Below, one piece after another: positions 14,759 through 57,246 of a DNA stretch of 64,000 nucleotides. The position numbers and the translations under genes are program-made. Each line of letters begins with the position of its first letter. Within the stretch, counting starts at the first letter, position 1. The stretch comes from a virus (lineage: Duplodnaviria; Heunggongvirae; Uroviricota; Caudoviricetes), in IMG/VR virus record IMGVR_UViG_3300028586_000764. One strand, given 5' to 3'. Below the pieces are notes generated by a model that saw only the letters and a program-made list of their open reading frames with translations, made no database searches and was not told where the DNA came from.

Positions 14759-14774
14759 AAATGCCTTTCGGCTG

Positions 14775-19223: not shown

Positions 19224-19284
19224 TTAGAAGGATGTACTTTTAGTGGCGAGCCTTAAAAAGTGGCCGGGGATACAAGTCGTCAGT

Positions 19285-21887: not shown

Positions 21888-21952
21888 CGTCGCACGAGTC
21901 GTCAGCACCCTGCATTTTAGAAGGAATCCAGGCGCTGCATGTAAATCTCGTT

Positions 21953-21994
21953 GCTATAGGTTAAGCGGGACTGTACTGGCCCCGCTAGGCACAT
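21953..21994 (+). promoter_or_regulatory. variant upstream element (GCTATAG ... AGGCACAT) for rIIB
   Basis: The sequence is ttGCTATAGgttaagcgggactgtactggccccgctAGGCACATttcAAGGAGaagaatcaATG. Confidence 0.35.
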
Positions 21995-23192: not shown

Positions 23193-23209
23193 AGAACCTG
23201 ATTTTCCAA

Positions 23210-23240
23210 GGCTTCGTCTCCGGACGAAGCCTTTTTCTTT
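23210..23240 (+). terminator. rho-independent terminator
   Basis: The hairpin ggcttcgtc-tccg-gacgaagcc is followed by TTTTTCTTT. Confidence 0.85.
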
Positions 23241-23261
23241 GCCTGTGTTGAGTTCCCCATG

Positions 23262-23826: not shown

Positions 23827-24687
23827 TCACTCCTTTTCCAATAGCCTGCCACGGGGCACATCATACCGCTGCCAGAAGCCTCGGAAGATTTCTTGTTCTG
23901 CCGTGACGCGCTTCATCATCGGGCAAGCGAATCGAATAACCAGCGTATGCGACTTCGAGTCCGTCGACTGCCACAGGACTTTTGGCTGCGAACTTGGAAG
24001 GTCCACGAATTCCACACCTTCAATACGTTCGAGGTGGGCATCGGCTTTAACCTGCCAGCCGGACGTCGCGGCTTCAGCCGCATCGAGAGCAGCTTTCTCA
24101 GCTTTCTCGAAGTCTACGTCGTAAGGGACCACGATAGGCAGAAGGTCGACGATGTACTCGCCGGTGGCACTGGAATTACGCACCGGCTGATTGAGCACTG
24201 CACTATTGGGCATGGACAGAGTCTTGCCCGTCAGTTGGTGAGCAGTACCAGTCTCTGCCAGCGTAGTGGTAAAGACATCGATGTCGATGACTCGCCCCTC
24301 TTTCCCTGCGATTTCGATGAAGTCACCCACTCGGTAACTGCGCGAAGTCGTAATCATCACGTAGCCCAGGATGCACATCAAAAGCTCTTTGGACACAAGA
24401 AGGATGGCGCCACCAACTGCAGCCAGGGACAGCATCAGGCCTGCCAGCTTGGTGGCCCAAATAGCAATGACGATGAACACCATCGTGACCCAAACGATGT
24501 TCTTGGCGTGTACGAGCTTTTCACGAGTACGCGATGCGTCCTGGCCGTTACTCGTGCGCAGGAGGAATCGGCCCCAGAGGCGAGTAATCATCACGGCCAG
24601 GCCGATGGTGATAGCCGTGGCAACGATGCGGCCGAGTTCGGTCGCATAATAGTTCTGTAAGACTGCCAGGATGGATTTCAGAGTCAT
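23827..24687 (-). CDS. small-conductance mechanosensitive channel (MscS family)
   Basis: Three TM segments are followed by the MscS beta domain GDFIEIAGKEGRVIDIDVFTTTL...LSMPNSAVLNQPVRN. Confidence 0.85.
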   Translation of the reverse strand: MTLKSILAVLQNYYATELGRIVATAITIGLAVMITRLWGRFLLRTSNGQDASRTREKLVHAKNIVWVTMVFIVIAIWATKLAGLMLSLAAVGGAILLVSKELLMCILGYVMITTSRSYRVGDFIEIAGKEGRVIDIDVFTTTLAETGTAHQLTGKTLSMPNSAVLNQPVRNSSATGEYIVDLLPIVVPYDVDFEKAEKAALDAAEAATSGWQVKADAHLERIEGVEFVDLPSSQPKVLWQSTDSKSHTLVIRFACPMMKRVTAEQEIFRGFWQRYDVPRGRLLEKE

Positions 24688-25218: not shown

Positions 25219-25334
25219 CCAATTATGTAGCAAGTTGACTTTATCCCAAAGCACTGGCTAACCGATTGCTGCTGCGGACGAGTCGGCGTTGCCTAGACAA
25301 CGTTGAAGATACTTTAATGAGTATAAAGCGCCAC

Positions 25335-25362
25335 GCTATACCGGGAGGACCGCGGACTATAC
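25335..25362 (+). promoter_or_regulatory. recurrent upstream element (GCTATAC-N4-AGGACCGC, then CTATAC)
   Basis: The sequence is cacGCTATACcgggAGGACCGCggaCTATACgtcg, about 50 nt upstream of 25413. Confidence 0.4.
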
Positions 25363-25412
25363 GTCGTATGACCGTCTCGGCATATCACTATTCACACGAA
25401 TCAAGAGGCGCC

Positions 25413-26768
25413 ATGAATCAAGAACTGCAAGAGTTGCTGCGAACTCCCCGCGAGGACCTGGATATCGAGCTTAAACAGTGGATGGACCCGGAAGACAAAT
25501 CGGTTCAAGCAAAATTTGCAAAAGAGTTGTTGGCACTCAGGAATCATGGAGGGGGCTATCTGGTTGTAGGGTTCTTGGATGAGCACCCTCCTTCGGAGGA
25601 CCCTGCACGCCCTGAAAATTTGTCTGCGTTCAGTACGGACTACTTCAATAACATCATTAAAAAATATGCCGAGCCTCCATTTCACTGTAACTCCCGAGTA
25701 ATTGTCCACCCGGTAAGTGGCAAAGAGTACCCTATTGTCGTGGTCCCAGGCGGAGCAACCCATCCCGTTCGATGCAAGGCGGATTCTCCTGATATGGGAA
25801 AAAGTGCCAAAATTAACAGCTATTACATTCGTCGCCCGGGCCCGGAAAGCAATACTCCACAGTCGGGCGCTGAATGGGACGAACTGATTAAGCGGTGTAT
25901 GTTGGCACAAAAAGAATCCATGCTTTCTGCCATTGCAACGCTAATGGGGCTAAACCGTGGCAGTGTCTCGGCCTATGTCCCTGCTGAGCCAATTCATCCT
26001 CTTTCGGAACTTCGGAAGTTCCGAGACGAAGCAATTGCAGCACTGGAGACCTTACAGCAAACGAAATTGCCAGCAAACGACGCTGCCCGCTTTCCAAACG
26101 GTCGATATGTCCTGTCTGCTCGAATTGTCGGACAGCTACAGAACCTTACGCAAAAAGAAATGCTTGACCGACTCACACGGCTGCGCCGCTACACGGGTTG
26201 GTCTCCTCTGTACGTATTTTCGCGCCCCGAACTTGCCCCCTATCCTGTGGATGAAAGGCAGGTGGAGTGCTGGTTAGGTCAGGGAGAGGACAGGGACGTG
26301 GGCCACGCCGATTTTTGGCGAATGTCTACCGATGGCTTCGTGACGCTGATTAGGGGCCATCAGGAAGATGGCCATGAAGCGGCAACTACCGGCATCCACC
26401 CTGGAAAAGGACTGGAGCTCACATTGCCCGCATGGCGTATCGCAGAGTTTCTGCTTCGGGTACGAGAATACGGAGCAGCGGTCACCGAAGGAGACTTTAC
26501 CATTCAACTAATCGTACAGTGGGAAGGCCTTGAAGGTCGACAGCTGTTCAGTTATGGAAACCGGCGTTGGCTTCCTGAGGGCTTTGAGGCAAAAGTCCAA
26601 AACTACCAAAAGGAAGTGGAGTTAACGCCGGCGGAAATTGATGTGGCACTTCCGACAGTATTGAATACTCTGGTAACTCCGCTCCTACGCCACTTTTCAT
26701 TTTTTGAACCCCCAGCGGATTTCTACGAGGGGGAACTAGGAGCGCTACAGAATCGAGGCAGCTTGTAA
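25413..26768 (+). CDS. AlbA_2 (Schlafen-like putative DNA-binding) domain protein with about 300-aa C-terminal domain
   Basis: LDIELKQWMDPEDKSVQAKFAKELLALRNHGGGYLVVGF is AlbA_2-like. There is an AGAGG RBS. Confidence 0.7.
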   Translation: MNQELQELLRTPREDLDIELKQWMDPEDKSVQAKFAKELLALRNHGGGYLVVGFLDEHPPSEDPARPENLSAFSTDYFNNIIKKYAEPPFHCNSRVIVHPVSGKEYPIVVVPGGATHPVRCKADSPDMGKSAKINSYYIRRPGPESNTPQSGAEWDELIKRCMLAQKESMLSAIATLMGLNRGSVSAYVPAEPIHPLSELRKFRDEAIAALETLQQTKLPANDAARFPNGRYVLSARIVGQLQNLTQKEMLDRLTRLRRYTGWSPLYVFSRPELAPYPVDERQVECWLGQGEDRDVGHADFWRMSTDGFVTLIRGHQEDGHEAATTGIHPGKGLELTLPAWRIAEFLLRVREYGAAVTEGDFTIQLIVQWEGLEGRQLFSYGNRRWLPEGFEAKVQNYQKEVELTPAEIDVALPTVLNTLVTPLLRHFSFFEPPADFYEGELGALQNRGSL

Positions 26769-29339: not shown

Positions 29340-29380
29340 GTTGTCCTGCGTGCGTATAGCCAACCTGCGAGGGTAGTCAA
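29340..29380 (-). promoter_or_regulatory. sigma70-like promoter carrying the recurrent element (TTGACT-N16-TATACG ... AGGACAAC)
   Basis: The coding strand reads TTGACTaccctcgcaggttgGCTATACgcacgcAGGACAACtacttatttacGAGGaaattcATG. Confidence 0.55.
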
Positions 29381-31582: not shown

Positions 31583-31719
31583 CGCAGTGAGGAACGAGAG
31601 AACGTCGAACGGTGCCTGCGAAGAGCTGCAGGAGTCTTCTTGTTTAGCACCTGGACCTTAAATGTCGGAGTCTCCTAAAAAGATATTTTCAAATGTTCGT
31701 TTGCGTATGGAGTCCGCTA

Positions 31720-31739
31720 GCTATAGGTGAGAGGACATG
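31720..31739 (+). promoter_or_regulatory. recurrent upstream element (GCTATAG-N5-AGGACATG) for DNA polymerase
   Basis: The sequence is ctaGCTATAGgtgagAGGACATGgg, about 55 nt upstream of 31793. Confidence 0.45.
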
Positions 31740-31792
31740 GGACGTGGATATACGTCCTTTCAATTTTTAGCAACGAGAGGAGATTTACCTTT

Positions 31793-34700
31793 ATGCAACT
31801 CGGATTCGATTTGGTCTATACCGACCCGAACACGCACGAAATCGTGCCTTGGGCAATGCCTGACACGAAGCTGTTTGCCCGTATCGAAGCGGCACCATGG
31901 AAAGTGGTCGACGTGGAGACTACCGGCCTGAATCCTGCAAGCAAGGAACAGAAGTTCTCCGGCAAGGAACTGCGTCGGGGTATCAACCCGGTGCTGCGCC
32001 TACGCATTCTGTCGGTGCTGTACCCGATGATTGGTACGGCCAAAGGCTACGACGTCGTCGCTTTCGACTTCGACCAGATGACCCAGAAGGAACGTGAACA
32101 AGCGGCTACGGCTTCGATGAACAATGTCGTCATCGCACACAACGCCGGCTTCGACGCGTACTGGATTCGCCAGTTCACGAAAGTGACGCCGAAGCTGTTG
32201 CTGGACTCGATGCTGATGGCCCGCGTGCTGCGCCCTGAACACCCGCTGGTCATGGCGCGCATCTGCAACGACGAGAACGAGGACCCGGACATCAAGGCGG
32301 AAGCCGAAGCGATGTTCATGCAGGGCCGCTCGGGCTGGTCGCTTGCCGACCTGTCGGTAGGCGTTCTGCGTCGTATTCTGCCTAAGGGCCTGCAAGGTCC
32401 TAAAAACTGGGCAGAGCCGTTCCTGACGCAAGCGAACTACAACTACGCCACCGATGACGTCCGGGTGCTGCACGACCTGCTGCTGGACCTGTTCGAAATC
32501 GACAGTTGTGACCAGCTGCTGGAGCGCTACTATGAGCTGCGCGCAGAGAATCGCGTGCTGCGCATCATTGAGCCCCAGGTGCTGGACATCGTGATGATGC
32601 GGGAACACGGCATGCCGTGGGACCAAGCTGAAGCTGCGAAGTACATCGAAGTCCAGTGGGACAAGGTGCGTCAGTTTGCAAAGCGCATGGTGGAACTCGA
32701 ACCGGCCCTGGCCAAGTTCGAGCGCGACCTGGGCGATGCCGGCAAAGGCATTACGGCCAACCTCAAAACCGCTATCGGCGAAGCATTTGCCGCCCGCGGC
32801 CTCGAGCTGGAGATGACGGAGAAATCCAACACCTTCAAGATTGGCGAGAAAGACTTGCGTCGTGCTCGCGCACAGGTCAGCGACGATGCCCGGGAACTGT
32901 TTGACACCTGGGTCGGCCTGAACCGTGCAAAGAAAGCTGGCGGTATGGCCATGGAAGTGACGGGCTACGCGGTACGCTCTCCTCAACGGGATAGCCGTCT
33001 GCATCCGAACACGGGCCACGGTCCGGTGACGGGCCGTCTGTCGTCATCCGAGCCGAACTGCTTCACCGGCGACACCGAAATCCTCACGCTTCAAGGCTGG
33101 GTGCGTTTCGACGAGCTGGACGATGATGCCAAAGTCGCGCAGTACGTCGACGGCCGTATCGAGTTCGTGAGCACGCTCGACGTGATTCGCGAAGACTGGG
33201 AAGGCACCCTGGTGCACAACCAGACCTCGAGCACTGACCTGCTGACGACGCCGATGCACCGCTGCCTGCTGATTGACCCCGTGTCGAAAAAGCAACGCGT
33301 GGTGATGGCCGAGGACTATCCGGAAGGCTATCGCCAGCTGCACGGCGGTATGTACGCGGGCGGCGAAGGCTTGGGCGTGAACGAAGCAGAACTGCGCTTC
33401 CTCGTCATGGGCCACGCTGCCGGCAGCTGGGAAGAAGACGGTTCGTTCACGCTGCGCTTCTCGCGTGCGCGTAAAGCAGAACGTTTCCTGAAGCTGTTTG
33501 CCAACCTGGACCCGATGGCCAACGTGCTGTCGACCGATGCACGCAGCTTCCGTTTCGGACCGACGCACGAACTCACCGAGCTGGCTGAGCTGTACCTGGG
33601 ACACGACTACGAATTCGGTTTCGGCGAATGGGTATTCTCCCTGAGCCGTGAGCAAATCGAGGTGTTCTTCGACGAGCTGACCCGTACGGATGCGACCCAC
33701 GCGAAGCCGACCAAGGCCTATCGTGCCCAGTATGTGGCTACTCGCAAGAGCGACGCAGACATGGTTCAAGCCCTGTATGCGGTGTCGGGTGCAATGGCCC
33801 GCGTGCAGTCGAATCTGGACAAGAAGACCGGAGAACAAACCTGGACCGTCAAGGCGGTGCAACGCGACTACACGTTCACCACTAACCGCACGCAAGAGCT
33901 CAAGCCTTACAAGGGCAAGGTTTACTGCGTGACGGTGCCGAGCAGCTTTATCGTGGTTCGCCACGGTGACAGCCTGCCGATGGTGACGGGTCAGTGCCAG
34001 CAGTTCCCGCGTGACCAGGGCTTCCGTAACTGTGTGATGGCGCCGGAAGGCTACAAAATCATGGCATCGGACTATTCCGCACTGGACATGCGTGTGGGTG
34101 CTGCACTGGCAATTCGTGCGCAGCGACATATCTTCGAGGCGTACATGGGCGACCGGGCAGTACATCCGGACGCAGCACGTGTGATTGCCCGGGTGTATGA
34201 AGGCAAGATTTCGATGGAAGCCGCTCGCGCCGAGGAAGCTCGTGCCGTTAAGGCCTTCGGTGACTGGAAAGCTCGTCGTGAAGACGTCGCTGACGCAATG
34301 GACGCTCGCAAGCGTTACTGGGAAGAGTACCGCAAACGTGCTCGCACCCAGCTGCTCGCCGGCTTCCAGCGCTGCCTGAAGGAAGTTCGACTGAAGGCCG
34401 ACTCCGAGGGCACCTCGGAGTGGGGTTCGCTGCGCGATGCGTTCAACATCGAAGGCATGGACATCCACACCTGGACCGCGCTGGGCATGGTGGGTGAAGA
34501 CCCGAAAGCGCTGTTCTCGGGCCTGTCCGGAGAAGACGTCGCCAAGTCGCTCAAAGAGTGGAAGAAGAAGCTCGGCGACAAGCGTCAAACCGGTAAGGTC
34601 GGTAACTTGTCGCTGCTGTATGCGATGAAGACCCAGGGCCTGATGGATGCTGCAGCTAAAAACTACAACATCCACTGGACTTACGAGGAAGCCGACAAGG

Positions 34701-35149
34701 TGCGCAACGATTGGCTGGCCGCTTACGTCGAAATCGACCTGTGGCACAAGTGGACCGAGCTCAACCCGGCAGAACAAGTGTATGTGCCAGACTTCGACCG
34801 CGGCGGCAAGTTCGCCAAGAAAGAGGTTTACGCATCGTACACGCTGGGTGACCGCCTCATCTACGCCTTCGGCCTGAACGCTGCTCTGTCGTACGAGGAC
34901 CAATCGACCGGCGCTGACATTCTGGGCCTGGTGATGCAAACGCTGCGGGAGTTCCATCCGGACATCTTCGATAGCGTCATCAACCAGGTGCACGATGAAT
35001 TGGTGTTCATGCTGCCTGACGAGAAAGTCGAGGAATGGACCGAGATTGTTCAGCGGGTCATGACTGAGTGCGCTGAGCACTTCCTGATGCAGTTCGGCGT
35101 GCGTGGTGAATGCTCTCCGGCTACGGGTCAGGTCTGGCTCAAGGACTGA
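31793..35149 (+). CDS. family-A DNA polymerase with N-terminal 3'-5' exonuclease domain, interrupted by an intein
   Basis: The exonuclease motifs are VVDVETTG, VIAHNAGFDAYW and YATDDVRVLHDL. The polymerase motifs are RLSSSEPN|intein|CQQFPRD, DYSALDMR (A), KRQTGKVGNLSLLYAM (B) and VHDELVF (C). There is a GAGGAG RBS. Confidence 0.95.
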   Translation: MQLGFDLVYTDPNTHEIVPWAMPDTKLFARIEAAPWKVVDVETTGLNPASKEQKFSGKELRRGINPVLRLRILSVLYPMIGTAKGYDVVAFDFDQMTQKEREQAATASMNNVVIAHNAGFDAYWIRQFTKVTPKLLLDSMLMARVLRPEHPLVMARICNDENEDPDIKAEAEAMFMQGRSGWSLADLSVGVLRRILPKGLQGPKNWAEPFLTQANYNYATDDVRVLHDLLLDLFEIDSCDQLLERYYELRAENRVLRIIEPQVLDIVMMREHGMPWDQAEAAKYIEVQWDKVRQFAKRMVELEPALAKFERDLGDAGKGITANLKTAIGEAFAARGLELEMTEKSNTFKIGEKDLRRARAQVSDDARELFDTWVGLNRAKKAGGMAMEVTGYAVRSPQRDSRLHPNTGHGPVTGRLSSSEPNCFTGDTEILTLQGWVRFDELDDDAKVAQYVDGRIEFVSTLDVIREDWEGTLVHNQTSSTDLLTTPMHRCLLIDPVSKKQRVVMAEDYPEGYRQLHGGMYAGGEGLGVNEAELRFLVMGHAAGSWEEDGSFTLRFSRARKAERFLKLFANLDPMANVLSTDARSFRFGPTHELTELAELYLGHDYEFGFGEWVFSLSREQIEVFFDELTRTDATHAKPTKAYRAQYVATRKSDADMVQALYAVSGAMARVQSNLDKKTGEQTWTVKAVQRDYTFTTNRTQELKPYKGKVYCVTVPSSFIVVRHGDSLPMVTGQCQQFPRDQGFRNCVMAPEGYKIMASDYSALDMRVGAALAIRAQRHIFEAYMGDRAVHPDAARVIARVYEGKISMEAARAEEARAVKAFGDWKARREDVADAMDARKRYWEEYRKRARTQLLAGFQRCLKEVRLKADSEGTSEWGSLRDAFNIEGMDIHTWTALGMVGEDPKALFSGLSGEDVAKSLKEWKKKLGDKRQTGKVGNLSLLYAMKTQGLMDAAAKNYNIHWTYEEADKVRNDWLAAYVEIDLWHKWTELNPAEQVYVPDFDRGGKFAKKEVYASYTLGDRLIYAFGLNAALSYEDQSTGADILGLVMQTLREFHPDIFDSVINQVHDELVFMLPDEKVEEWTEIVQRVMTECAEHFLMQFGVRGECSPATGQVWLKD
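33059..33994 (+). other. intein (312 aa) inserted in polymerase motif between SSSEPN and CQQFPRD
   Basis: The intein starts CFTGDTEILT and ends ...VVRHGDSLPMVTGQ before +1 Cys. Degenerate LAGLIDADG-like segments are present (LVMGHAAGSWEEDGSF). It is in-frame with both exteins. Confidence 0.75.
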
Positions 35150-35205
35150 CACAACTGGATTGGCAGGTGGCCCTTCGGCTTCCTGCTCAACACCCTGCTT
35201 TATTG

Positions 35206-35233
35206 GCCTGCGGATTTTTCCGCAGGCTTTTTC
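35206..35233 (+). terminator. rho-independent terminator
   Basis: The hairpin gcctgcgga-ttttt-ccgcaggc is followed by TTTTTC. Confidence 0.85.
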
Positions 35234-35347
35234 TTTGGCGGAGTCAAAACACGGTCCCACTGTCCGACCGCTAAACAGCGCGGCTACACGCTGACAGTGC
35301 CCGGCATAGTGCCGGGGTTTTTCCTGACAGTTCAAGAGGCTCCGCTA

Positions 35348-38070: not shown

Positions 38071-38094
38071 GCCGGCGCCGGTGGTAAGTGGGTC

Positions 38095-38128
38095 GCTATA
38101 CGTGTTTTCTAATTTGGATTTGAGGACA
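38095..38128 (+). promoter_or_regulatory. recurrent upstream element (GCTATAC-N21-AGGACA as RBS) for 38133 gene, divergent with 38051-38070
   Basis: The sequence is gtcGCTATACgtgttttctaatttggatttgAGGACAcatcATG. Confidence 0.45.
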
Positions 38129-38435: not shown

Positions 38436-38466
38436 AAGCCCATCTTCGGATGGGCTTTTTCTTTTT
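38436..38466 (+). terminator. rho-independent terminator
   Basis: The hairpin aagcccatc-ttcg-gatgggctt is followed by TTTTCTTTTT. Confidence 0.85.
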
Positions 38467-38618
38467 CGAATAAACTGCTGCTGGTGCGGTGAACAGCAGA
38501 TGTTGTTCATTTTACGAGAAGCTTCACAGTTGCAAGCTACTAATTGTTACATTTCTGCAGAAAACGTATATTGTCGACGCGGTACAATTGTGTCCGTGTA
38601 ATCAACAATGTGAAGTTT

Positions 38619-39591: not shown

Positions 39592-40605
39592 TTACCAGGC
39601 AGACAAGGCGCGCTTGCGCTGCTCTTCTGGCAGGAAGCTAGCCAAAGCCCCCTGCCGCATCATCTCAGCACATTCCTTCCCGTCGAACCCGAACAATTCG
39701 CCAACCAGGGCCAGTTCCTGTGAGTGCGTTGTCGCGCTCATCAATCGGTTGTCCGTGCACGGCACGAGCTTGAGACCAAAGTCGTGCAGGGCGCGGAACG
39801 GATGTTCCGTTGCGGACGAAATCGCGCCTGTATGTACATTTGACGAGACGCAGGCCTCGATGACGATACCTCGCTCGCGGACCATTTCGATAAGAATACG
39901 GTCGCCATTCAGGCTGTCAATCAACCGGGTGCCATGGCCCAGGCGCTTGGCACCGTGGGTGACGGCCTCCCAGATACTGTCCAGCCCTGCGGCTTCGCCG
40001 GCATGCAGCGTGATGGGGGCATGCGGCATTTCTTCATAAAGGTCCAGTAGTGCCGGATGCTTCGAGGGTGGAAATCCCGCTTCAGGCCCGGCCAGGTCGA
40101 CGCCGACAACCAAGCTGTTTGGCTGGCGGTGCCGTTGCTCGAACAGCGCGCGAACTTGTGCGAACTCGTCAATGTGACGAAGGCCGCACAGCAGCAGGCC
40201 TGCTTCGATACGGTTACCTGTCTCTTCTCGGCCTTCTCGCACACCCTGCTCCACTGCAGCGATAACCGCGTCAGGCGACAGACCACCGGCGGTGCAGAGC
40301 ATAGGGCCGAATCGCAGCTCGGCCAGCACGACGCCATCGGCCGCCAGGTCGATGACTGCTTCACGCGCGACGCGCACGAGGCTCGACTCCGTTTGCATGA
40401 CACCGACGGTCCATCCGAAGGCTTCCAGGTAGCCCGGAAGGCTGCCGGCTGCCGCGCGTGCTGCCACCAAAGCAGCCAGGCGCGCCGGGTCCCGTTCAGG
40501 CAAAGGCATACCAACCGCGTCTGCCAGTTCGATGAGCGTTTGTGGGCGAAGACCGCCGTCCAGGTGGTCGTGAAGTGCAACCTTGGGAATAGCTTGTGTG
40601 TTCAT
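39592..40605 (-). CDS. add: adenosine/adenine deaminase family protein
   Basis: The motifs are VALHDHLDGGL, TLHAGEAAG and LVPCTDNRL. The start is at MNTQAIPK (40605). Confidence 0.85.
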   Translation of the reverse strand: MNTQAIPKVALHDHLDGGLRPQTLIELADAVGMPLPERDPARLAALVAARAAAGSLPGYLEAFGWTVGVMQTESSLVRVAREAVIDLAADGVVLAELRFGPMLCTAGGLSPDAVIAAVEQGVREGREETGNRIEAGLLLCGLRHIDEFAQVRALFEQRHRQPNSLVVGVDLAGPEAGFPPSKHPALLDLYEEMPHAPITLHAGEAAGLDSIWEAVTHGAKRLGHGTRLIDSLNGDRILIEMVRERGIVIEACVSSNVHTGAISSATEHPFRALHDFGLKLVPCTDNRLMSATTHSQELALVGELFGFDGKECAEMMRQGALASFLPEEQRKRALSAW

Positions 40606-40736
40606 GGTTCTTCCAGCGTCGATGCGCCGGCTCCTAGTAAGTGGGCCGAAGCCAATGTTTAATGTCCTATGTCCTGTAGCGAAACGCAATGGTTGAACAA
40701 TCCCTATATGAGTTTTAGGTCATCTAGGAGTTGTTC

Positions 40737-42670: not shown

Positions 42671-42960
42671 TGCAATTTCCTTTTCGTAGACCCGTTGAAA
42701 CAAACGTTTCGTATTTGAATTCTCAAAATTCAACGGGCATGGTGTTAACTTTTTTGTGTCCTGGAGGGCCCTGCAGAGTCTGCGGGGGCTACCGGCCAAC
42801 GTTCCTATGGCTTGGCGCCGATAACTCTTCATATAGCAACTGCCTTTCCATTTTTGGGAACACGTTTTCGGCTGAAGGAGGACGAGCGCCGACCGCCGGC
42901 GAAGGCCCGCGGCAGGAGGTTTTTAGAAGAACTAGCGGAAATTGTGAAAGAAAGCGTCTT

Positions 42961-42980
42961 GCTATACGAAATAAGGAAAC
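42961..42980 (+). promoter_or_regulatory. recurrent upstream element (GCTATAC-N5-AAGGAAAC)
   Basis: The sequence is ttGCTATACgaaatAAGGAAACcactctacagaagaacaatATG. Confidence 0.4.
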
Positions 42981-45135: not shown

Positions 45136-45380
45136 GTGGATTCTCCAAATATGCGCGAGGCACATGGTTCAAGTGGAGCTGCCTTTGCCAGATTTGATGT
45201 GCCTCGCGTACATTTGCGAGGGTTCAAAAGGTGGGTACTACCCGCATTCAACATATTCGATTTCTCGAACGGCAGCGATAGGCTGCGGTGGCCTGAACAT
45301 CGTGTAGGTAACGCATCGGTGTGCCAGCTTGCGGCACTGCTGGCTATACCCGCCAAGGACCACTACTTAAAGGAGCGAGC

Positions 45381-48323: not shown

Positions 48324-48389
48324 GAGTCTTTCCTTTCACAATCGCGAAGGTTCCGAGCTCCCAATACGTATTGGGTCCGGAATGCGGTG

Positions 48390-50724
48390 GTGGGTAGGAG
48401 CACTGTCTCGCGACAAACACTCCCCCCTATAAACCGTACGTGCGAGTTTCCCCGCATACGGCTTCAATCAACGGAAAGTCGGGCGGGCCCGACCGGCAAT
48501 AGAAACTTGAAACCTGTGGCATGGCCCCTCGTGTGACAGAGGGGGTGAAGTAGAGCGAGGTTTTCCGAGGTGTTGGGACCCTTATCGACCCGGCGAACCA
48601 GGTGATGAGTGTGCCAACGAGTAAGCCTCGTGATAGCCTCGGCACAGACGGGGCAAAGCCCTTTCTGTCGCCTCCACAAATACAGCAGCCGGCGTCGGCC
48701 TTGAAGATTGTTCTCCATTTGCACGGAGAATCGCTCCTCGAAGTAGGTTTCGAACGCTGGGTTGAACGGTTGAGCCTCCTCTCGAATCTTCACATGGCGA
48801 CGGATGACCGTCTCCAGTGCGTATCTCAAGGTTAGCAGTTTCCGTTCACCATTCTTCTGTATTTCCGTGGTGCTGAAGCGGAAGGTACGGGCGCCGACAG
48901 GTTTGAAGTACCTGGAGAGTATCCAGGGCCTCGACTTGTTCGGATGCCGTCTCTTCGCCCAGCGCCAAAGCGCTTGCCATATTTCTTTGTCGACGTTGTT
49001 GTAAGTGTCTTTCGACACCACGTGCTGATGGTAGTTAGCCCAGCCCCGAATCTTTGGATTCAAGACCTTAATCAGCAGACTTTGTGGCGACGTACGATGT
49101 TTCCGTATTGTCGTCCTGACCGCGTCGAGGAACGTTTTCACGTTCTTCTTGGCCGGCTTGATGAGCAGTTTTTCCTTAGATGTACCATGGTGGTACTTCC
49201 GGACGTTCTGCCCCAGGAAGTCAAAGCCTGTTCCAACGTGGGTCACCTTAGTCTTCTCCTCGGAGAGGGTCAGACCTCGGCTTGCCAGGAAGTCGCGCAC
49301 GAGCGGTTTGACCTTGTCTTCGAGCAGCTCTTTCGAGCTACCCGTGATGACGAAGTCGTCCGCGTACCGGACCACTTGAACTTGTGACTTGGCGGCGATA
49401 TGATGCTTGACGCGCTTCAGACCGTGGGAACGACCGAAGTGTTCAATCAGCAAATCTTCCAGCCCGTCGAGAGCCAAGTTGGCCAAGATGGGAGAGATGA
49501 GTCCCCCTTGTGGCGTACCTTCCGTTGTTGGATACAACGAACCTTTGTCGACAAACCCCGCCTTCAGCCATTTTTCCAACACGCTAGTGTCGGTGCAGAT
49601 GTTTTTCAACATCCAGCCGTGACTGATATGGTCGAAGCAACCCTTGATATCGCCTTCTAACACCCATGCCGCGGATTTCTTGTGCGAGAGGAGTGAGAAG
49701 AGTTTGGCGATAGCGTCCGCGGTCGAGCGTGCAGGTCGGAACCCGTAGCTGTTCCAGTCGGCCGTGGTCTCCGAGACGGGTTCCAGCGCCAGCGCGTGCA
49801 GAGCCTGCATTGCGCGGTCCTTCATCGTCGGGATTCCCAGGGGACGTTTCTTTCCATTGGCTTTGGGGATGTACACGCGTCGTAGCGGTTTCGGCTGGTA
49901 GCCTTTGCGCACGAGCGTCCCAATAGCTTTTGCTTTGGCCTGCGGAGAGTCCCAGGTTACCCCGTCGACTCCCGCAGTCCGTTTGCCTTGATTTTCAGTT
50001 ACTCGTCGAACTGCCAAGGCTTTGGCAGAATACGAGTGCGTCAGCAACCATTGCAGGGCTTTCACCTTGCGCCAGTGCTTCAGCTCAGTTGCCTTCGCGA
50101 TGCGTACTTGCAGCTTCCTTACCTCCAGATGACAACGTGCCCAGTCGATGCTGTGCCAGTCGATACCTGTAGTGGGAGCCGCATCCGCACCGAATGCTAC
50201 TTTCGTAGCGTCTAATGCAGTCATTTGCTTGTCCCCCTAAAGAGAAGTTCCGCGAGTTATTTCGCGATGTTGACAAGAACTAAGTCAGCCGGCTTTCACC
50301 GCGGTGCAAAGCACCTATCACACCGATTACAGGTGCGCGTTCGCTTCTTAGTTCATCCTCTACCCTCTAAGCCATGGGCGTTCCTTGCGGTCAGCTTGCT
50401 CGCCTTGCGGAGAGCGACTTATAGGGCTTACCCCGGTCTCGTTGATGCAACACTACTGGGTTAGGTCCCACCTATACACCGTGCGCTTGAATGTCCGTGC
50501 AGTCCCAATTCCTAGGGGATTTGCCAGCGCGTGCCTTTTGGCTTGAGTCTGTCAGCTTTTTTGACTCATTCGCAGTAACGGCGATTATCAGTGGTTCACG
50601 TGAGTTGACCATACCAGTAAGCCTAGTCCTATCCCAGATAAAGCTTCCAGGTTCACTTCGTGCCTCACGGCCCGACTTGTGACACTCTTTCGAGTTTCGG
50701 TACATTGTCCTCCGAGCTTCACAC
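48390..50724 (-). mobile_element. group II intron (ORF-containing, with domain V/VI); boundaries approximate
   Basis: Domain V, GAGCCGTATGCGGGGAAACTCGCACGTACGGTT, lies on the minus strand at about 48416-48450. Domain VI-like GGGGGAGUG...GCUCCUACCC with a bulged UA follows, and the 3' end is at about 48390. The candidate 5' GUGUG is at about 50724. The protein ORF sits in domain IV. Confidence 0.8.
48464..50224 (-). CDS. group II intron-encoded protein: reverse transcriptase / maturase / HNH endonuclease
   Basis: The RT motifs are RPLGIPT and YADDFVI. The maturase domain is RGWANYH. The C-terminal zinc finger/HNH is CPVCAEAI...WHTHHLV...CHTRGH. It ends just before domain V. Confidence 0.9.
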
Positions 50725-50816
50725 CCCGCAGTTACCCGCGACGCATGTCAGAGTAGGCTACTCTCGACGGAACGAGAGGTTTCCCTAACCAAAAAGATGG
50801 CCTGAAACAATTGCAA

Positions 50817-50984: not shown

Positions 50985-51016
50985 CAGCAGCGTTTAATAA
51001 GCCGTAGTCCGTTTTT

Positions 51017-51036
51017 GCTATACGTGCAAGGTCATT
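51017..51036 (+). promoter_or_regulatory. recurrent upstream element (TGCTATAC-N5-AGGTCATT)
   Basis: The sequence is tttTGCTATACgtgcaAGGTCATTattAAAGGAtatttATG. Confidence 0.5.
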
Positions 51037-52270: not shown

Positions 52271-54106
52271 ATGAAAAAAATCTCCTCTCTTATCATGGGA
52301 GTCGCGCTCACTGCTTCAAGCCTGTCGGCTGTTGCAGCTCAATACGAAACGCGAATTCTCATCAAAACTCTGAAGGTTACGGGCAGCCCGCAACCTGGCA
52401 CCGGCACGCCGGGAACCGGAACGACGCCTGGCACCGGTGGCACGGGTGGCTCCGGTACAGGAGGCACGGGCGACACGTCTACGCCGTCCTCGAAAGCCGT
52501 GACCCTGACTCCGGGCTCTACGGACTTTGGTGCGCTTCAAGTGGGCGAGACTTCCACCGTCCGCGCTTTCCTGTTGAGCAATCCGGACACCGTCGACAAG
52601 GCGATTTCGGACATTCATGTCAATGGTGCTGACTTCAAACTGTCCGGCAACCAATGCGGCACAACGCTGGCCGCGGGTAGTACCTGCAACATCGGCGTGG
52701 TGATGACTGCCGGCGGCCTGGGAGCCTCCTCGGGCTCGTTGTCGGCAACGGTTGCTGGTCAAGTGCTAACCGCGTCCCTGACGGGCACGGGCAAGTCGGT
52801 TGACGCCGCTCTGCAGGCGTCCCCTGCTTCCGTCGACTTCGGCGCCGGTGTAACTGGCCAATCGTCGGAGGTGAAGACAGTTTCACTTCACAACTCGAAC
52901 GATGTCGCTGTCCAGTTCAGTGGTTTCTCGATGGATAGCGCCACCAAAGCGAATTTCAATGTGGACCCCGCTGGCTGCGGGACCTCGCTTGCAGCTGGTG
53001 CGTCGTGCAACCTGTACGTAATGATGACCCCCTCGCAGGCGGGCGCTCTTTCGGGTAGTATCTCGATTGTCGCGGGCGGTCGTCTAACGAACGTGGCGCT
53101 GAGCGGTAGCGCTGTAGCCGCGACCAAATCCATCGCCAACTCAGGCTGGACCACTTTGACCGCCGAGCCTGGCCGTCCGAGCACTGGCTCTGTTGCCCTC
53201 AGCAACACAGGCAACTCGACAATCCGCCTGGGCGCGATTTCCACCGGAACGCCATACTTCTCGATTACCAGCAATGAATGCGGTACCGAGTTGGCTCCTG
53301 AAGGCTATTGCACGGTCACCGTTCAGTTCTCGCCTAACAAGGCCGGCGACTTCGCGGACACGCTGACCATTGAGAGCGATGCGACAAACAACGCTTCACT
53401 CCAGCTAACGGGTACAGGTATCGCCCCGCAGCCGCACCTGGACCAGATTTCTGGCGGCTACTTCGGCACTCCGTACGTGAACACCACGGACTCGACCACT
53501 GTCGTATTCCAGAACACCGGCCAAGTTCTCACGAAAGTGGGCACCATCAGCTACCAGGGTACTGGCGGCACTACCGCGCCGGCATCCACTGTGTTTAACG
53601 TGACTTCCGACACCTGTACTGGCGCGTCGCTCGCACCAGGTGCTACCTGTAATGTGGTCGTGGCTTTGACCGGTAAGCAAGAACCAACCAGCTATTCGAT
53701 GTCCATCTACCCGAAATACGGTGAGACTGGCACGGAAGCGACGAGCTATGGCTATGTGGGTGGTAATTTCCACTACATGTACACCGCGATGACGGCTACG
53801 AACTTTGGCGGCACGTTCAACTCGACCACCCCGGACAGCACTCCAATTGCGTTCCAGACTTCTGGTGGCACTTCGCAGCGCACCTTCACGCTGACCAGCC
53901 GCGACTCTGCTCCTGGCACCGTGACCGTGGCGAGCTCTAACGCACCTGAGTTTGTCATCAGCTCGAACACCTGCCTTGGTACCCTGGCGCCGAACCGCAG
54001 CTGCACGTTTGTGGTCACCTTCAAATCAGCCGGCTCCGGACAACGCGCTGGCAACATCAACATCGGTGGCGCCACCAAGATGTCAGTCAGCCTGACGGGC
54101 AACTAA
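52271..54106 (+). CDS. large secreted protein built from about 5 Ig-like (choice-of-anchor-D-like/ASH-like) repeats
   Basis: The signal peptide is MKKISSLIMGVALTASSLSAVAAQ. A repeating pattern L.P...FG...VG..S......N.G...I.I..I...G..F......CG..LA.G.SC...V.F.P is present. There is an N-terminal G/T-rich linker. Confidence 0.8.
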   Translation: MKKISSLIMGVALTASSLSAVAAQYETRILIKTLKVTGSPQPGTGTPGTGTTPGTGGTGGSGTGGTGDTSTPSSKAVTLTPGSTDFGALQVGETSTVRAFLLSNPDTVDKAISDIHVNGADFKLSGNQCGTTLAAGSTCNIGVVMTAGGLGASSGSLSATVAGQVLTASLTGTGKSVDAALQASPASVDFGAGVTGQSSEVKTVSLHNSNDVAVQFSGFSMDSATKANFNVDPAGCGTSLAAGASCNLYVMMTPSQAGALSGSISIVAGGRLTNVALSGSAVAATKSIANSGWTTLTAEPGRPSTGSVALSNTGNSTIRLGAISTGTPYFSITSNECGTELAPEGYCTVTVQFSPNKAGDFADTLTIESDATNNASLQLTGTGIAPQPHLDQISGGYFGTPYVNTTDSTTVVFQNTGQVLTKVGTISYQGTGGTTAPASTVFNVTSDTCTGASLAPGATCNVVVALTGKQEPTSYSMSIYPKYGETGTEATSYGYVGGNFHYMYTAMTATNFGGTFNSTTPDSTPIAFQTSGGTSQRTFTLTSRDSAPGTVTVASSNAPEFVISSNTCLGTLAPNRSCTFVVTFKSAGSGQRAGNINIGGATKMSVSLTGN

Positions 54107-54128
54107 GCTAACGCGAGTTGCTTGATGA

Positions 54129-54158
54129 GCCCTGCTTCTACGGAAGCAGGGCTTTTTT
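54129..54158 (+). terminator. rho-independent terminator
   Basis: The hairpin gccctgcttc-tacg-gaagcagggc is followed by TTTTTT. Confidence 0.85.
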
Positions 54159-54308
54159 ATCGGAGTTTCTGTAAAACCTGTCTTTAGGACTACTAGGGCT
54201 TCAATGGTAAGCACAGAACAGGCCGTAGTTTAAAATAGTAGGTCCGGGCTTATAGAGCGCAGGCTCACTGTTTGGGAACTAGGTTAGCCGTATTTTTTAG
54301 AATGGATT

Positions 54309-54337
54309 TTGGCAAATGCTTATCGCTGTGCTATAAT
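54309..54337 (+). promoter_or_regulatory. canonical sigma70 promoter (TTGGCA-N17-TATAAT) for the TerD gene
   Basis: The sequence is TTGGCAaatgcttatcgctgtgcTATAAT. It contrasts with the GCTATAC-type elements elsewhere. Confidence 0.6.
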
Positions 54338-54413
54338 GTGCGCACTCGATGTTCTCAGAAGCATTGAAATAATCCACCTCCCCCGTAAGCCAATTATTCT
54401 AGGAGAAGTACGC

Positions 54414-54989
54414 ATGGCAATCAGTCTGCAAAAAGGCGGCAACGTCAACCTGAGCAAAGAGGCCCCTGGCCTGACCAAACTGACCATCGGCCTCGGCTGG
54501 GACCCGCGCCCGACCGATGGTGCCGCCTTCGACCTGGACGCTTCGGTTTTCGTGCAAAATGCTTCGGGCAAAGTTCGCAGCGACGCCGACTTCATCTTCT
54601 ACAACAACCTCAAATCGGCCGACGGCTCGATTATCCACAACGGGGACAACCGTGACGGCGGCGCCGTCGGCGACGACGAAACCGTCAGCATCGACCTGAG
54701 CAAGGTTCCGGCTGACGTCGACAAGCTGTCGTTCTGCGTTACCATCCACGAAGCAACCGCCCGTAAGCAAAACTTCGGTGGCGTTCCAAAGGCGCACGTG
54801 CGAGCTATCAACGGTGACACGAACGTCGAAGTTGCTCGTTACGACCTGTCGGAAGATAGCTCGACCGAAACTGCGATGATTTTCGGAGAACTGTACCGTA
54901 ACGGCGCAGACTGGAAATTCAAAGCCGTCGGCCAAGGCTTCAATGGCGGCCTGGGCCCGCTGGCACGTTCGTTCGGCGTCAACGTCTGA
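54414..54989 (+). CDS. terD: TerD-family stress protein (TerD/TerE/TerZ-like)
   Basis: There is an [38 protein letters not shown]...FDLDASVF...GDNRDG is typical of TerD. Confidence 0.9.
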
Positions 54990-55089
54990 GCAACTAAGCG
55001 CCCGCGCTAACCAATGCCGGCTAGCATCTGCTAAGCCGGCATTTTCCTATTTAAGGCCCTGCGTCCAACTCACACTTAACGGTTAAATC

Positions 55090-56394
55090 ATGCGACAAAT
55101 CAATCGCGGCGAACGCCTCAAATTGCAAGACCTGCTTCGTGGAGGGAACCGATTCAACATCGTAGTAAATGCCTTCGGTCCCGGCCTGACGCTTGATTTC
55201 GCATGTTTCGGAATCGACGCATCGGGAAAGCTGTCTGACGACAGATATATGACCTTCTTCAATCAACCGACGTCGCCCTGTGGTGGCGTGTCCCTGGCAA
55301 GCGGGAATCAGTTCGCCTTTGACCTGGACCGTATTCCTGCCGGTATCGACCGGCTGGTGCTCACTGCTGCGTTGGACGGCCCAGGTACAATGGGTAAGCT
55401 CAATGCCAGCAGCATTGTGCTAAAAGAAGCCGGCCAAGACGTTGGGCGATTCAATTTTTCCGGAACCGATTTTCAAGAAGAGCGCGCGCTAATGCTTATT
55501 GAAATTTACCGCAAGGACGGTAAATGGCGAATGAGCGCAACAGCACAAGGCTTCAACGGTGGCCTTGACGCGCTGGTACGTCACTTCGGTGGCGAAGTGT
55601 CAGATTCGGGCCCAGGCCCTGCAGCCCCGCCGGTGCCGGCGTCCAATAGCGTCAACCTAACAAAGCGCATTGCACTGGAAAAGCGTATGGCGACAGAAGC
55701 CCCTCAGCTCCTGAGCCTCACAAAGAGTGCAAACGTCTCGCTGGAGAAAGTTGGGCTTGGAACGCATAAAGCTCGATTCTGCGCGGTTTTCGACATCTCG
55801 TGGTCGATGGAAGACCTCTACGACACAGGTGAAGTTCAGGCATTTGCTGAGCGCGCGCTGGCGATGGGGTGTCGATTCGATGATGACGGCGAAATGGACA
55901 TCTTCCTGTTTGGTGCGAATGTTCACCAAGTGATGACCATGAACATCGGCAATTATAAGGTCCACTTGCGTACAGTGCTCAAACAAGTAGGCATGGAGGG
56001 GGACACCCAATACGGGAAGGCGGTCCAAGCGATTCGACGTTTCTACTTCCCGGAGAACGACGGGTCGGAGGAGCCGAAGAAAGCTCGAGCGGACACTCCG
56101 GTATACGTTGTGTTCCAAACCGATGGTGACACGGCACGTAAAGATTTCACCGAACGGCAGATTCGTGCGTCGAGCTATGAACCAATCTACTGGCAGTTTG
56201 TCGGCCTGGGCAGGGACCGAAATTTCAGCTTTCTCCGAAAACTCGACGACCTGAAAGGTCGTTTGCTGGACAATACGGGCTTCTTCGAGGTGAGCAATGT
56301 GTCTGGCTACTCAGACGACGTCTTCTTCGATAAGATGGTCGCAGAGTACTCGCAGTGGGTGATTCAGGCCAAGCACAAGGGCCTAATCGTTTAA
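55090..56394 (+). CDS. TerD-domain protein with C-terminal von Willebrand factor A (vWA) domain (TerF-like)
   Basis: The N-terminal TerD-like segment includes GERLKLQDLL...FNIVVNAFG...FDLD. The C-terminal vWA-like region is FCAVFDISWSM...DIFLFG...VFQTDGDT. Confidence 0.75.
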   Translation: MRQINRGERLKLQDLLRGGNRFNIVVNAFGPGLTLDFACFGIDASGKLSDDRYMTFFNQPTSPCGGVSLASGNQFAFDLDRIPAGIDRLVLTAALDGPGTMGKLNASSIVLKEAGQDVGRFNFSGTDFQEERALMLIEIYRKDGKWRMSATAQGFNGGLDALVRHFGGEVSDSGPGPAAPPVPASNSVNLTKRIALEKRMATEAPQLLSLTKSANVSLEKVGLGTHKARFCAVFDISWSMEDLYDTGEVQAFAERALAMGCRFDDDGEMDIFLFGANVHQVMTMNIGNYKVHLRTVLKQVGMEGDTQYGKAVQAIRRFYFPENDGSEEPKKARADTPVYVVFQTDGDTARKDFTERQIRASSYEPIYWQFVGLGRDRNFSFLRKLDDLKGRLLDNTGFFEVSNVSGYSDDVFFDKMVAEYSQWVIQAKHKGLIV

Positions 56395-56437
56395 GAATAC
56401 AAGAGAGCCTTCTCTACGAAGGTCTCTAAATTTTGAA

Positions 56438-56477
56438 AACCGAAGCGCGACACTTGTTGCCCTTCGGTTTTATTTTG
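56438..56477 (+). terminator. probable rho-independent terminator
   Basis: The hairpin ccgaag-16 nt-cttcgg is followed by TTTTATTTT. A second hairpin lies at 56404-56426. Confidence 0.5.
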
Positions 56478-56515: not shown

Positions 56516-56995
56516 TCAAGTGACGACTAGCAGCTCTCCATTCGGATGGCGCATCAGGCCCACGCGGCAGCCAGAGTACGCACGCTGCGGGCACGTCGGA
56601 GTAACCTTGATGAGTCCACTGCCGTCATGCGCCAACCACACCGAACGATTGGCTGTGTGCGGACGCACCAGCAGAACGAACGTCGTAGGCTTGGCCTGTG
56701 CTTCTTCCTTGCGCATAACTTCATCGAGCAACATAGCGTCGGCCAGTTTGCCAAGGACAGGCGCCGGTTTCGGAGGGCGAAGCTCCTTGGCGATTGCCAG
56801 GGTGCCTGCAAAGGCCATCAAAGGAAATACTATCTTCGCACCGAGAGCGCCGCCCGTGAAGTCGAGAACGATGCCAATCAGGCTAGCCAGCGCCAAGGCA
56901 AAGGACAGTGGCCGCGGCCAATATACGCACATCACGAGGCTGAGCGCTGCAAGTGCAATCCAGGTGAAACCAATGACAAGAGAAAGTTCGGGCAT
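56516..56995 (-). CDS. hypothetical membrane protein (159 aa)
   Basis: There are three N-terminal hydrophobic helices and no clear SD. Confidence 0.45.
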   Translation of the reverse strand: MPELSLVIGFTWIALAALSLVMCVYWPRPLSFALALASLIGIVLDFTGGALGAKIVFPLMAFAGTLAIAKELRPPKPAPVLGKLADAMLLDEVMRKEEAQAKPTTFVLLVRPHTANRSVWLAHDGSGLIKVTPTCPQRAYSGCRVGLMRHPNGELLVVT

Positions 56996-57246
56996 GTGAC
57001 AGAGAGAGTGATTGATTCGAGAAAGATTTGCCCTCCTCGCCGTCGACCACAGCGTCCCTGTGCAGGGCTAATGTTAGCCCCTAAAATGTAATAACCTTGT
57101 ATGGCAGGATTGGCAACACATTATAGCCTCACCTTGTGCAAAAAATACAATACTTTAAGTGAAAAATTGATAATTATTTTTTTAGCTAGTTTCCTATGGG
57201 ACTTGACGTTCTAAAATGGAGGTCACCCCTATAGCAACCCCCTCTA

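Follow-up and report, generated by a model that had tools for sequence, protein, structure and literature searches.

Why a tailed phage should carry Ter genes, which have been tied to tellurite, colicin and phage resistance for some 40 years and for which we know of no molecular mechanism, and whose RNA polymerase would read them, are the questions raised by the locus described here. The stretch of DNA that was analysed (hereafter the window) comprises 64,000 nucleotides, given as one strand, of IMG/VR record IMGVR_UViG_3300028586_000764, a virus of the Caudoviricetes. Within it a first-pass annotation, made from the letters alone, had picked out a TerD gene and, downstream of it, a TerF-like gene in which a TerD-like domain is fused to a von Willebrand factor A (vWA) domain, and had described the pair as driven by the only textbook sigma70 promoter present. 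As set out below, both genes are preserved by selection, the promoter of TerD recurs in divergent relatives, and the biosynthetic genes that accompany the pair in several of those relatives are missing from the window. On this evidence we lean, with a little more belief than doubt, towards a reduced phage Ter module, that is, a self-contained two-gene unit which is read by host sigma70 and is protective in the infected cell.

The promoter of TerD

The elements TTGGCA and TATAAT can be read directly in the sequence upstream of TerD, at the 17-nt spacing originally reported, and together with the TG of an extended -10 element they form a promoter that agrees with 11 of the 12 sigma70 consensus positions (Table 1). 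It lies within a 260-nt intergenic region, 76 nt 5' of the TerD ATG and past the strong terminator of the preceding gene, and transcription is predicted to start near A54344. When both strands of the window were scanned, with expectations drawn from 300 first-order Markov simulations of it, this was the sole site to reach at least 11 of 12 positions (0.20 expected, or 0.013 with the TG required), a result with which tool scans agree and which upholds the description of a single textbook sigma70 promoter. Sites matching at least 10 of 12 positions numbered 5 against 4.4 expected; the rest of the window has no sigma70 enrichment, and in this respect TerD does differ from nearly all other genes here. 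An antisense site running from 54420 to 54393 (TTGCCA-N16-AATAAT, 10/12) was rejected as falling at this chance level with no gene downstream. The open reading frame (ORF) initially given for TerD, 54309-54989, is a mechanical one and had to be given up: the TTG at its head belongs to the -35 hexamer and is not a start codon, the true start being the ATG that stands eight bases past the Shine-Dalgarno AGGAG.

Conservation of this promoter is not apparent from alignment. A MAFFT alignment of TerD upstream regions gave 58% column identity and left the promoters unaligned, and it was motif scanning anchored on the ATG that revealed the architecture TTGnCn-N17/18-(TG)C-TATAnT, 67-88 nt before the ATG and just past a terminator hairpin, in the six divergent relatives compared (contigs L004, L006, L007, L008, L087 and L089). 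The TTGGCA-N17-TGC-TATAAT of the window appears as TTGGCA-N18-AGC-TATAAT in L007, as TTGCCA-N18-TGC-TATACT in both L004 and L089, as TTGCTA-N18-TGC-TATACT in L087, as TTGCCT-N17-TGC-TATAGT in L008 and, in L006, as TAGCTA-N17-TGC-TATAGT, the -35 of which reads TTGCTT in the L002 assembly. All seven members share GCTATAnT with T at -7, the TG is present in six of the seven, and TTG(G/C)(C/T)(A/T) is found at 17-18 nt in 6/7. The upstream regions of bacterial TerD genes contain no GCTATA, and the sites seen there differ or are weaker and stand at other distances; inheritance of the promoter from a bacterial donor was rejected on this ground, the promoter not having simply been imported along with the genes. 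In the relatives, GCTATAnT sites with a TTG -35 are found also 5' of the ATP-grasp_Ter/PRTase operon, of a RecA gene and of an HTH gene, and the best -35 hexamer begins TTG at 10 of the 18 GCTATAnT sites across the clade.

The window holds, in addition, a phage-wide promoter motif, TnGCTATA(C/G)(G/C), hereafter class A, with 14 exact sites where 0.65 are expected, a count that none of 100 shuffles reached. Intergenic k-mer enrichment at first returned only terminator tails (TTTTCTTT), and the motif emerged from the contexts of TTTTAGAA, which has 7 copies in the window, all of them intergenic. Class-A sites stand 35-55 nt 5' of start codons, on the correct strand, for rIIA, rIIB, PolA and some dozen genes more, are often followed by a leader motif ..cAGGACA.., and suggest that the phage has a sigma factor, or an RNA polymerase specificity, of its own. 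The -10 element of TerD, GCTATAAT, contains the GCTATA core that is invariant in these 14-18 phage-wide sites, and TTTTAGAA, possibly an UP-like or shared upstream element, lies 27-32 nt 5' of that core at four promoters, namely that of TerD (54295) and three of class A (21915, 42921 and, on the minus strand, 29396). These resemblances, together with the lack of a -35 box at the other GCTATAATGTG site of the window (57127, minus strand), could mean that the TerD promoter belongs, as a strong variant, to the GCTATA family of the phage itself and is read by the phage apparatus, in which case it would say nothing of host polymerase or of early timing. We regard this as a real alternative, but an unlikely one. 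T at -7 and A at -11 are key sigma70 contacts, and the former is found in every one of the TerD promoters, whereas class A has C or G at both positions after GCTATA (the equivalents of -8 and -7) in 17 of 18 sites; 15 of the 18 have T two bases ahead of the G of the core, where the window's TerD site has G; and class A has no -35 signal, against the TTGnCn of six of the seven TerD promoters and the TTG hexamers of the GCTATAnT sites at large.

Relative to class A, then, the TerD promoter keeps the core, has A/T at -8/-7 and adds a -35 box, and the changes T-7 to G and A-8 to C would turn its GCTATAAT into the class-A-like GCTATACG. Our reading is one of two promoter classes, of which the TerD class is the one that a host sigma70 holoenzyme could use unaided, and recognition of the TerD promoter by host sigma70 is plausible. 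The epithet "host-type" is, as such, only partly apt: the promoter is real and is conserved in all seven clade members despite flanks that cannot be aligned, but its -10 element is built on the core of class A. The window has just one further GCTATAAT(GTG) site, possibly of the TerD promoter class, which stands 132 nt 5' of a 159-aa ORF (GCTATAATG occurs 2 times in the window against 0.11 expected), and its best -35 match is 2/6. This ORF is convergent with TerF, has predicted N-terminal transmembrane helices and tandem promoter-like sites on its 5' side (class-A TTGCTATAGG and the GCTATAATGTG already mentioned), and gave no Pfam, PHROG or PADLOC match. The arrangement offers a hint of co-regulation with the Ter pair only; a functional tie of this membrane ORF, or of other neighbours, to the pair was dismissed, none of them being conserved beside the Ter genes of the relatives.

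The two proteins and their transcription unit

The first gene was correctly named at the outset. Its product matches the Pfam family PF02342 over the full length of the profile (positions 1-187 of 187, E = 1.7e-79, 266 bits against a cut-off of 25.3) and, in the Protein Data Bank (PDB), entries 2KXT (K. pneumoniae TerD, E = 1.6e-77, 62% identity) and 3IBZ (E = 1.5e-73). 2KXT is the NMR structure of a protein reported to bind Ca2+, and its Ca2+-binding signature is reportedly a loop GDN(R/L)TG(E/A)GDGDDE with an upstream DxD motif. In an alignment of phage, bacterial and Klebsiella TerD, the loop GDNxxGxxxGDDE (residue 77, D78, N79, G82, G86, D87, D88 and E89) and a DLD motif (D40-L41-D42) are invariant while the variable positions of the loop differ, and the window's TerD is in this way seen to keep the predicted Ca2+-binding loop.

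The second gene encodes, judging from its domains, a protein of TerF architecture with an intact metal-ion-dependent adhesion site (MIDAS). It matches PF02342 at residues 30-166 (E = 1.8e-25, 90 bits) and PF10138, vWA-TerF-like, at residues 228-432 (E = 8e-50, 170 bits against a cut-off of 29.4), with a weak match to the Pfam Copine family as well (E = 0.004). An AlphaFold2 (AF2) model with a mean pLDDT of 86 has a TerD-like beta-sandwich at residues 1-168, a disordered linker between the two domains at 170-186, a helical hairpin at 190-220 and a copine-type vWA domain at 229-430; in Foldseek comparisons with the PDB the first half is matched by TerD structures and the second by the vWA domains of RGLG1/2, BON1 and ITIH1 and by integrin I domains. 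The MIDAS residues D235-x-S237-x-S239, T306 and T344-D345-G346 are invariant in 20 homologues, and the TerD-like domain lacks the Ca2+ loop, a 10-residue gap falling exactly there relative to 3IBZ and 2KXT. Pfam, the MIDAS residues and the structure model all concur that the C-terminal domain is a vWA domain, which settles the one doubt that had been raised in advance about the proposed fusion. As a side observation, the TerF proteins of the closest phage clade (that of the window and P0002-P0007) lack a Lys-rich vWA loop of ~20 residues (GKGRKSK...FAD) present in bacterial homologues, the gap lying at alignment columns ~390-420 and about residues ~375-380 of the window's TerF, and L007-type proteins have a longer insert instead.

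Purifying selection acts on each of the two genes: dN/dS spans 0.04-0.24, the values against four relatives being 0.14-0.24 for TerD and 0.04-0.11 for TerF. The effective number of codons (ENC) of TerD, 31.5, is the lowest, and its codon bias the strongest, among the 44 predicted genes of the window; that of TerF is 52.3, and the synonymous divergence of TerD is several-fold below that of TerF. The terminator of the upstream gene would isolate the unit from transcription arriving from that side. The Shine-Dalgarno context of TerD, CTAGGAGAA, recurs upstream of TerD in the relatives, and a riboswitch or other structured element in its predicted 5' untranslated region (5' UTR) was dropped from consideration, the fold having z = -1.4 and the only Rfam matches of the window belonging to a group II intron. 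Between TerD and TerF stands a hairpin that is probably a partial intrinsic terminator or attenuator: in all 6 relatives a hairpin of 9-13 bp with a U-rich tail likewise follows the TerD stop, its sequence differing from one to another, and neither a GCTATA nor a sigma70-like site was found between the window's hairpin and the TerF ATG. The statement that the promoter drives the pair is consequently best divided, TerD being driven strongly and TerF, with the hairpin intervening, probably by read-through only. This conserved hairpin, the weak Shine-Dalgarno of TerF, the codon bias and the lower synonymous divergence of TerD suggest that TerD is the abundant partner and that TerF is made in sub-stoichiometric amounts. 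At the far end, a strong bidirectional terminator, in a 91-nt region with a fold of -32.6 kcal/mol (z = -5.3), is predicted to close both the TerD-TerF unit and the convergent 159-aa ORF. Intrinsic terminators are plentiful in the window in general (31-33 per 20 kb against about 20 expected), and many of the intergenic ones share a stereotyped tail, TTTTCTTTG.

Relatives of the module and its possible role

So far as 64 kb can show, the window is phage DNA, as it encodes rIIA and rIIB, a family-A DNA polymerase (PolA), a primase and several exonucleases, and none of the 10 neighbouring ORFs of the pair that were scanned has a Pfam match. A dUTPase and a group II intron are encoded too, and the window is dense in ORFans, many of its ORFs having no family. 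A megablast of 25 kb of the window against GenBank phages found no match, and blastn of a 6.5-kb region found short TerD matches alone, at 66-71% identity, which indicates that no close relative of the phage has been sequenced in that collection. An identical TerF protein is recorded on a contig of 810,191 bp, and the nearest homologues, 58-82% identical to the window's TerF, are on metagenomic contigs of 0.44-1.46 Mb (the sizes being 440 kb, 501 kb, 810 kb, 1.12 Mb and 1.46 Mb); none of these has neighbouring genes in common with the window, and the neighbours of the pair differ in every relative. The contigs look like related huge phages, L006 having 38 tRNA genes in 5 kb (755-5740) just upstream of its Ter genes and L007, of 1.46 Mb, sharing the class-A motif with the window. 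Among published phage genomes the largest that we found is of 841 kb (bioRxiv 10.1101/2025.01.14.633092), and these contigs, if they are genuine single phage genomes (chimeric or concatemeric assembly being possible), would be at or above the known size record.

In the relatives, TerD-TerF heads a cluster of AIM24, ATP-grasp_Ter, PRTase_2/TRSP, a 253-aa protein of no named family, StiP/PELOTA and a C-C bond lyase. The full biosynthetic cluster is present in L002/L006, L004, L087 and L091; L007 has it without AIM24 and the ATP-grasp gene, L008 keeps AIM24 alone, and L089 keeps only a shortened C-C lyase. A tblastn search of the 64 kb with all of the L002 module proteins returned TerD and TerF and no biosynthetic genes, and the picture of a simple pair from which we started was, to that extent, incomplete, since what is a pair here is elsewhere the head of a complete operon, lost from or never acquired by this phage. 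TerC, TerB and TelA were found neither in the window, among Pfam- and PHROG-scanned ORFs within about 10 kb, nor at the loci of the relatives. By gene content the window holds a reduced Ter module, equivalent to terD/E-terF, which is set among the replication genes of the phage.

In the comparative-genomic model of Anantharaman, Iyer and Aravind (2012), in the summary given by PMC7824862, TerD and TerB are ligand sensors and TerC is a membrane effector, TelA and the vWA domain of TerF make up sub-membrane structures that hinder the entry of phages and xenobiotics, and a nucleoside-like metabolite from PRTase/HAD/ATP-grasp genes is the signal; a superinfection-exclusion role for the Ter genes of jumbo phages was proposed in 2021 (PMC7824862). 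For the window, it is reasonable to postulate that unmodified host sigma70 RNA polymerase most likely reads the lineage-conserved TerD promoter, that a strong Shine-Dalgarno on a 5' UTR of ~70 nt would give abundant TerD, consistent with the codon bias, and that the hairpin and U-tract after TerD would pass only part of this transcription into TerF before the bidirectional terminator ends the unit. Judged by the analogues that bacterial Ter systems and copines provide, TerD and TerF would most likely form a divalent-cation-dependent, membrane-proximal complex, and a scaffold of that kind fits the structural likeness of TerF to copines. Such a complex would alter the envelope or ion-stress physiology of the infected cell, and the phage would benefit in that this cell is protected and competing phages or colicin-like agents are excluded. 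Sigma70 dependence, timing, the TerD-to-TerF stoichiometry and the physiological role are what we infer for the pair, and with moderate confidence we favour a protective, host-modifying function. The cargo of the window includes an SPFH/flotillin protein, a CDF cation exporter and an MscS-like channel (Table 1), and terD operons are highly transcribed in gut jumbo phages, where they lie beside pspA-like and Ca2+-ATPase genes (PMC12880540); cargo and expression pattern are circumstantially consistent with a membrane and ion theme.

Several considerations weigh against this assignment of function. The -10 element of TerD, with its GCTATA core, might be read by the phage machinery too, or by that machinery instead; TerF, behind a terminator-like hairpin and with a weak Shine-Dalgarno, may be expressed very little; the membrane components and the metabolite-synthesis genes that the window lacks may lie elsewhere in a genome of ~810 kb or could come from the host; neither TerD nor TerF has a match in PADLOC-DB v2; and, beyond Ca2+ binding by TerD, we know of no biochemical function established for any TerD or TerF.

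Sponge-type counter-defences being established among phages, the pair could alternatively be a decoy, abundant TerD (and some TerF) sequestering a Ter signal or Ca2+, or poisoning a Ter complex of the host. TerD is a candidate sensor of the Ter metabolite in the published model (PMC7824862), it is seemingly tuned for very high expression, and the clade has kept the putative ligand-binding and scaffold parts while repeatedly losing the genes for signal synthesis. We nevertheless think a decoy quite improbable: in several relatives the biosynthetic module is complete and stands under promoters of the TerD class, which fits the building of a Ter system better than the blocking of one, and Ca2+ is the only known ligand of TerD, a Ter system in the host being conjectural. 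It is scarcely credible that the pair is a decaying passenger, i.e. a remnant of a horizontally acquired Ter operon under deletion and of no current role, for while the window has nothing of the downstream module, and L007, L008 and L089 have only parts of it (the last the shortened lyase), and while the surroundings of the pair are never the same twice, the conservation data speak otherwise: both ORFs are intact and selectively constrained, the Ca2+ loop and the MIDAS are invariant, promoter, Shine-Dalgarno and hairpin persist across members whose TerF has diverged to 58-82% identity with the window's, and the codon bias of TerD exceeds that of any other gene in the window.

To return to the protective module, one may go further and propose that TerD-TerF is an autonomous minimal Ter core, working without the metabolite pathway, TerB, TerC or TelA, and placed in a small GCTATAnT regulon which host polymerase fires on genome entry, ahead of the TnGCTATASS programme; Ca2+-binding TerD and sub-stoichiometric, copine-like TerF would then remodel the inner face of the membrane against superinfecting DNA, or else soak up a Ter/Ca2+ alarm of the host. 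In this detail the proposal is improbable, and if true it would define, for the first time, both a minimal unit and a timing for a Ter function. Less ambitiously, a pair that has been kept under purifying selection and with its own promoter, while the synthesis genes were shed several times, is a candidate minimal functional unit, and the two promoter classes give a sequence handle with which to predict the cargo genes that host polymerase can express.

The wider window and known Ter systems

Apart from the genes already discussed, the window contains a group II intron whose ORF has reverse transcriptase (RT), maturase and HNH domains and which has outward-facing GCTATAcg promoter sites close by. 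Its DNA polymerase, of 1140 aa, has an exonuclease domain at ~130-250 and a polymerase domain from about residue 900, and the middle (about 440-750) matches PHROG families annotated RNR, ThyA or PhoH, a pattern of the kind that an intein, or another inserted element common to these families, would produce. Two large predicted secreted or surface proteins have HYDIN/ASH-type Ig-like repeats, one with a signal peptide and a Gly/Thr-rich linker and the other with a LamG/ConA-like domain also, and may be virion decoration or adhesion proteins. The remaining cargo includes an adenosine deaminase, a Schlafen/AlbA_2-domain protein and a PEP-utilising-enzyme mobile-domain protein.

Table 1. Coordinates of the features of the window discussed in the text.
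Feature	Position	Strand	Remarks
Intrinsic terminator of the upstream gene (52271-54106)	54127-54154	+	12-bp stem, then TTTTTTAT
TTTTAGAA next to the TerD promoter	54295-54302	+	in A/T-rich tract just 5' of the -35 box
Sigma70-type promoter of TerD	54309-54337	+	-35 TTGGCA 54309-54314; N17; TG 54329-54330 (extended -10, -15/-14); -10 TATAAT 54332-54337
5' UTR of TerD, predicted	54344-54413	+	Shine-Dalgarno AGGAG at 54401-54405
TerD	54414-54989	+	191 aa; by family a Ca2+-binding beta-sandwich stress protein
Intercistronic hairpin, TerD to TerF	55013-55043	+	GC-rich, then UUCCUAUUU
TerF-like gene	55090-56394	+	434 aa; PF02342 and PF10138
Bidirectional intrinsic terminator	56436-56471	.	AAAACCGAAG...CTTCGGTTTT, then ATTTT
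Convergent 159-aa ORF	56516-56995	-	
Second GCTATAAT(GTG) site (GCTATAATGTG)	57120-57127	-	
Class-A site TTGCTATAGG	57228-57237	-	
Other class-A sites, plus strand (examples)	11126-11135, 19284-19293, 21951-21960, 31718-31727, 38093-38102, 42959-42968, 45341-45350, 51015-51024	+	
Other class-A sites, minus strand (examples)	13865-13874, 14750-14759, 18469-18478, 29353-29362	-	
Terminators with tail TTTTCTTTG (examples)	11484-11519, 23208-23243, 35205-35238, 38436-38467		intergenic
rIIA	19337-21838		
rIIB	22012-23151		
Family-A DNA polymerase	31727-35149	+	
SPFH/flotillin protein	2918-4651	-	
CDF cation exporter	5775-6704	-	
MscS-like channel	23827-24687	-	
Group II intron	48389-50779	-	Rfam D1-D4 50626-50779; domain V/VI 48389-48466
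Intron ORF	48464-50224		
GCTATAcg sites near the intron	50983(-), 51017(+)		
Ig-like repeat protein with signal peptide	52271-54106	+	
Ig-like repeat protein with LamG/ConA-like domain	1-1266	-	
PEP-utilising-enzyme mobile-domain protein	1322-2773	+	
Schlafen/AlbA_2-domain protein	25266-26768	+	
Adenosine deaminase	39592-40689	-	E = 3e-74

Among known systems, the enterobacterial plasmid terZABCDEF (IncHI2 R478, E. coli O157 and Klebsiella virulence plasmids) resembles the locus in that a TerD-family gene is followed by a TerD-vWA fusion (terE-terF), and in that ATP-grasp/PRTase/StiP/citrate-lyase-like genes are linked to the Ter genes, a linkage which on the phage side is seen in the relatives only. 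The VWA protein encoded directly after terE on Klebsiella and E. coli plasmids aligns over 91-93% of the window's TerF at about 32% identity, from which the latter appears to be a distant homologue of the terF product, ortholog and paralog being alike compatible with this. Unlike the plasmids, the window and the loci of the relatives have no TerZ, TerA, TerB or TerC; the ATP-grasp...lyase genes are divergent from terZ-A-B-C-D-E-F on Klebsiella plasmids, whereas in the phage relatives they lie downstream on the same strand, after AIM24; and the context is a plasmid or chromosome in the one case and a huge, lytic-type phage genome in the other.

The Ter modules of jumbo phages were reviewed by Iyer, Anantharaman, Krishnan, Burroughs and Aravind in 2021 (PMC7824862), and include TelA-vWA-TerC/DUF475-TerD in Caulobacter phage CcrColossus and its relatives and a near-complete Ter system with PRTase/HAD in Acinetobacter phage vB_AbaM_ME3. 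These cultured phages are like the present one in having TerD and TerF-type vWA proteins in very large genomes, and the same proposal of superinfection competition or stress has been made for them. In contrast to the window's TerF, the vWA protein of CcrColossus stands alone (235 aa), with no TerD fusion, and occurs together with TelA and a TerC-like membrane protein. A vWA-TerF match is found in 229 GenBank phage records, in none of which it extends over 80% or more of the fused protein, and the window's TerD is 34-46% identical to those of cultured jumbo phages.

Other counterparts are bacterial, from among the Ter-dependent stress-response systems of Anantharaman, Iyer and Aravind (2012). 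The loci of the "stress response protein SCP2" in Oxalobacteraceae, Thiotrichales and others read TerD-TerF-AIM24-ATP-grasp-PRTase/TRSP-x-StiP/PELOTA-C-C lyase, the same gene order as in those phage relatives that keep the full cluster, often with extra TerD copies in the bacteria; identity to the window is 45-53% for TerF and 72-77% for TerD. The window differs in lacking everything downstream of TerF and in its promoter, which only the phage lineage has. Copines, represented by BON1 and by the vWA domains of RGLG1/2, likewise join a beta-sandwich, in their case Ca2+-responsive, to a vWA/MIDAS scaffold that follows it, and outside the Ter family it is copine-type vWA domains that match the C-terminal domain of TerF best in structure; the N-terminal domain of TerF, by contrast, is of the TerD fold and not a C2 domain, and lacks the TerD Ca2+ loop, which makes the likeness one of analogy and not of family membership.

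The presence of Ter components in jumbo phages (TerD, TerC, TerF and TelA in Caulobacter phages, and those of ME3) and the superinfection hypothesis were known before, and since phage-borne Ter genes and their proposed role had both been published, the conceptual advance made here is modest. What is new is the canonical fused TerD-vWA form in a phage, its reduction to a TerD-TerF core inside a lineage whose other members keep the full biosynthetic operon, and a conserved sigma70-type promoter set against a phage-specific promoter family.

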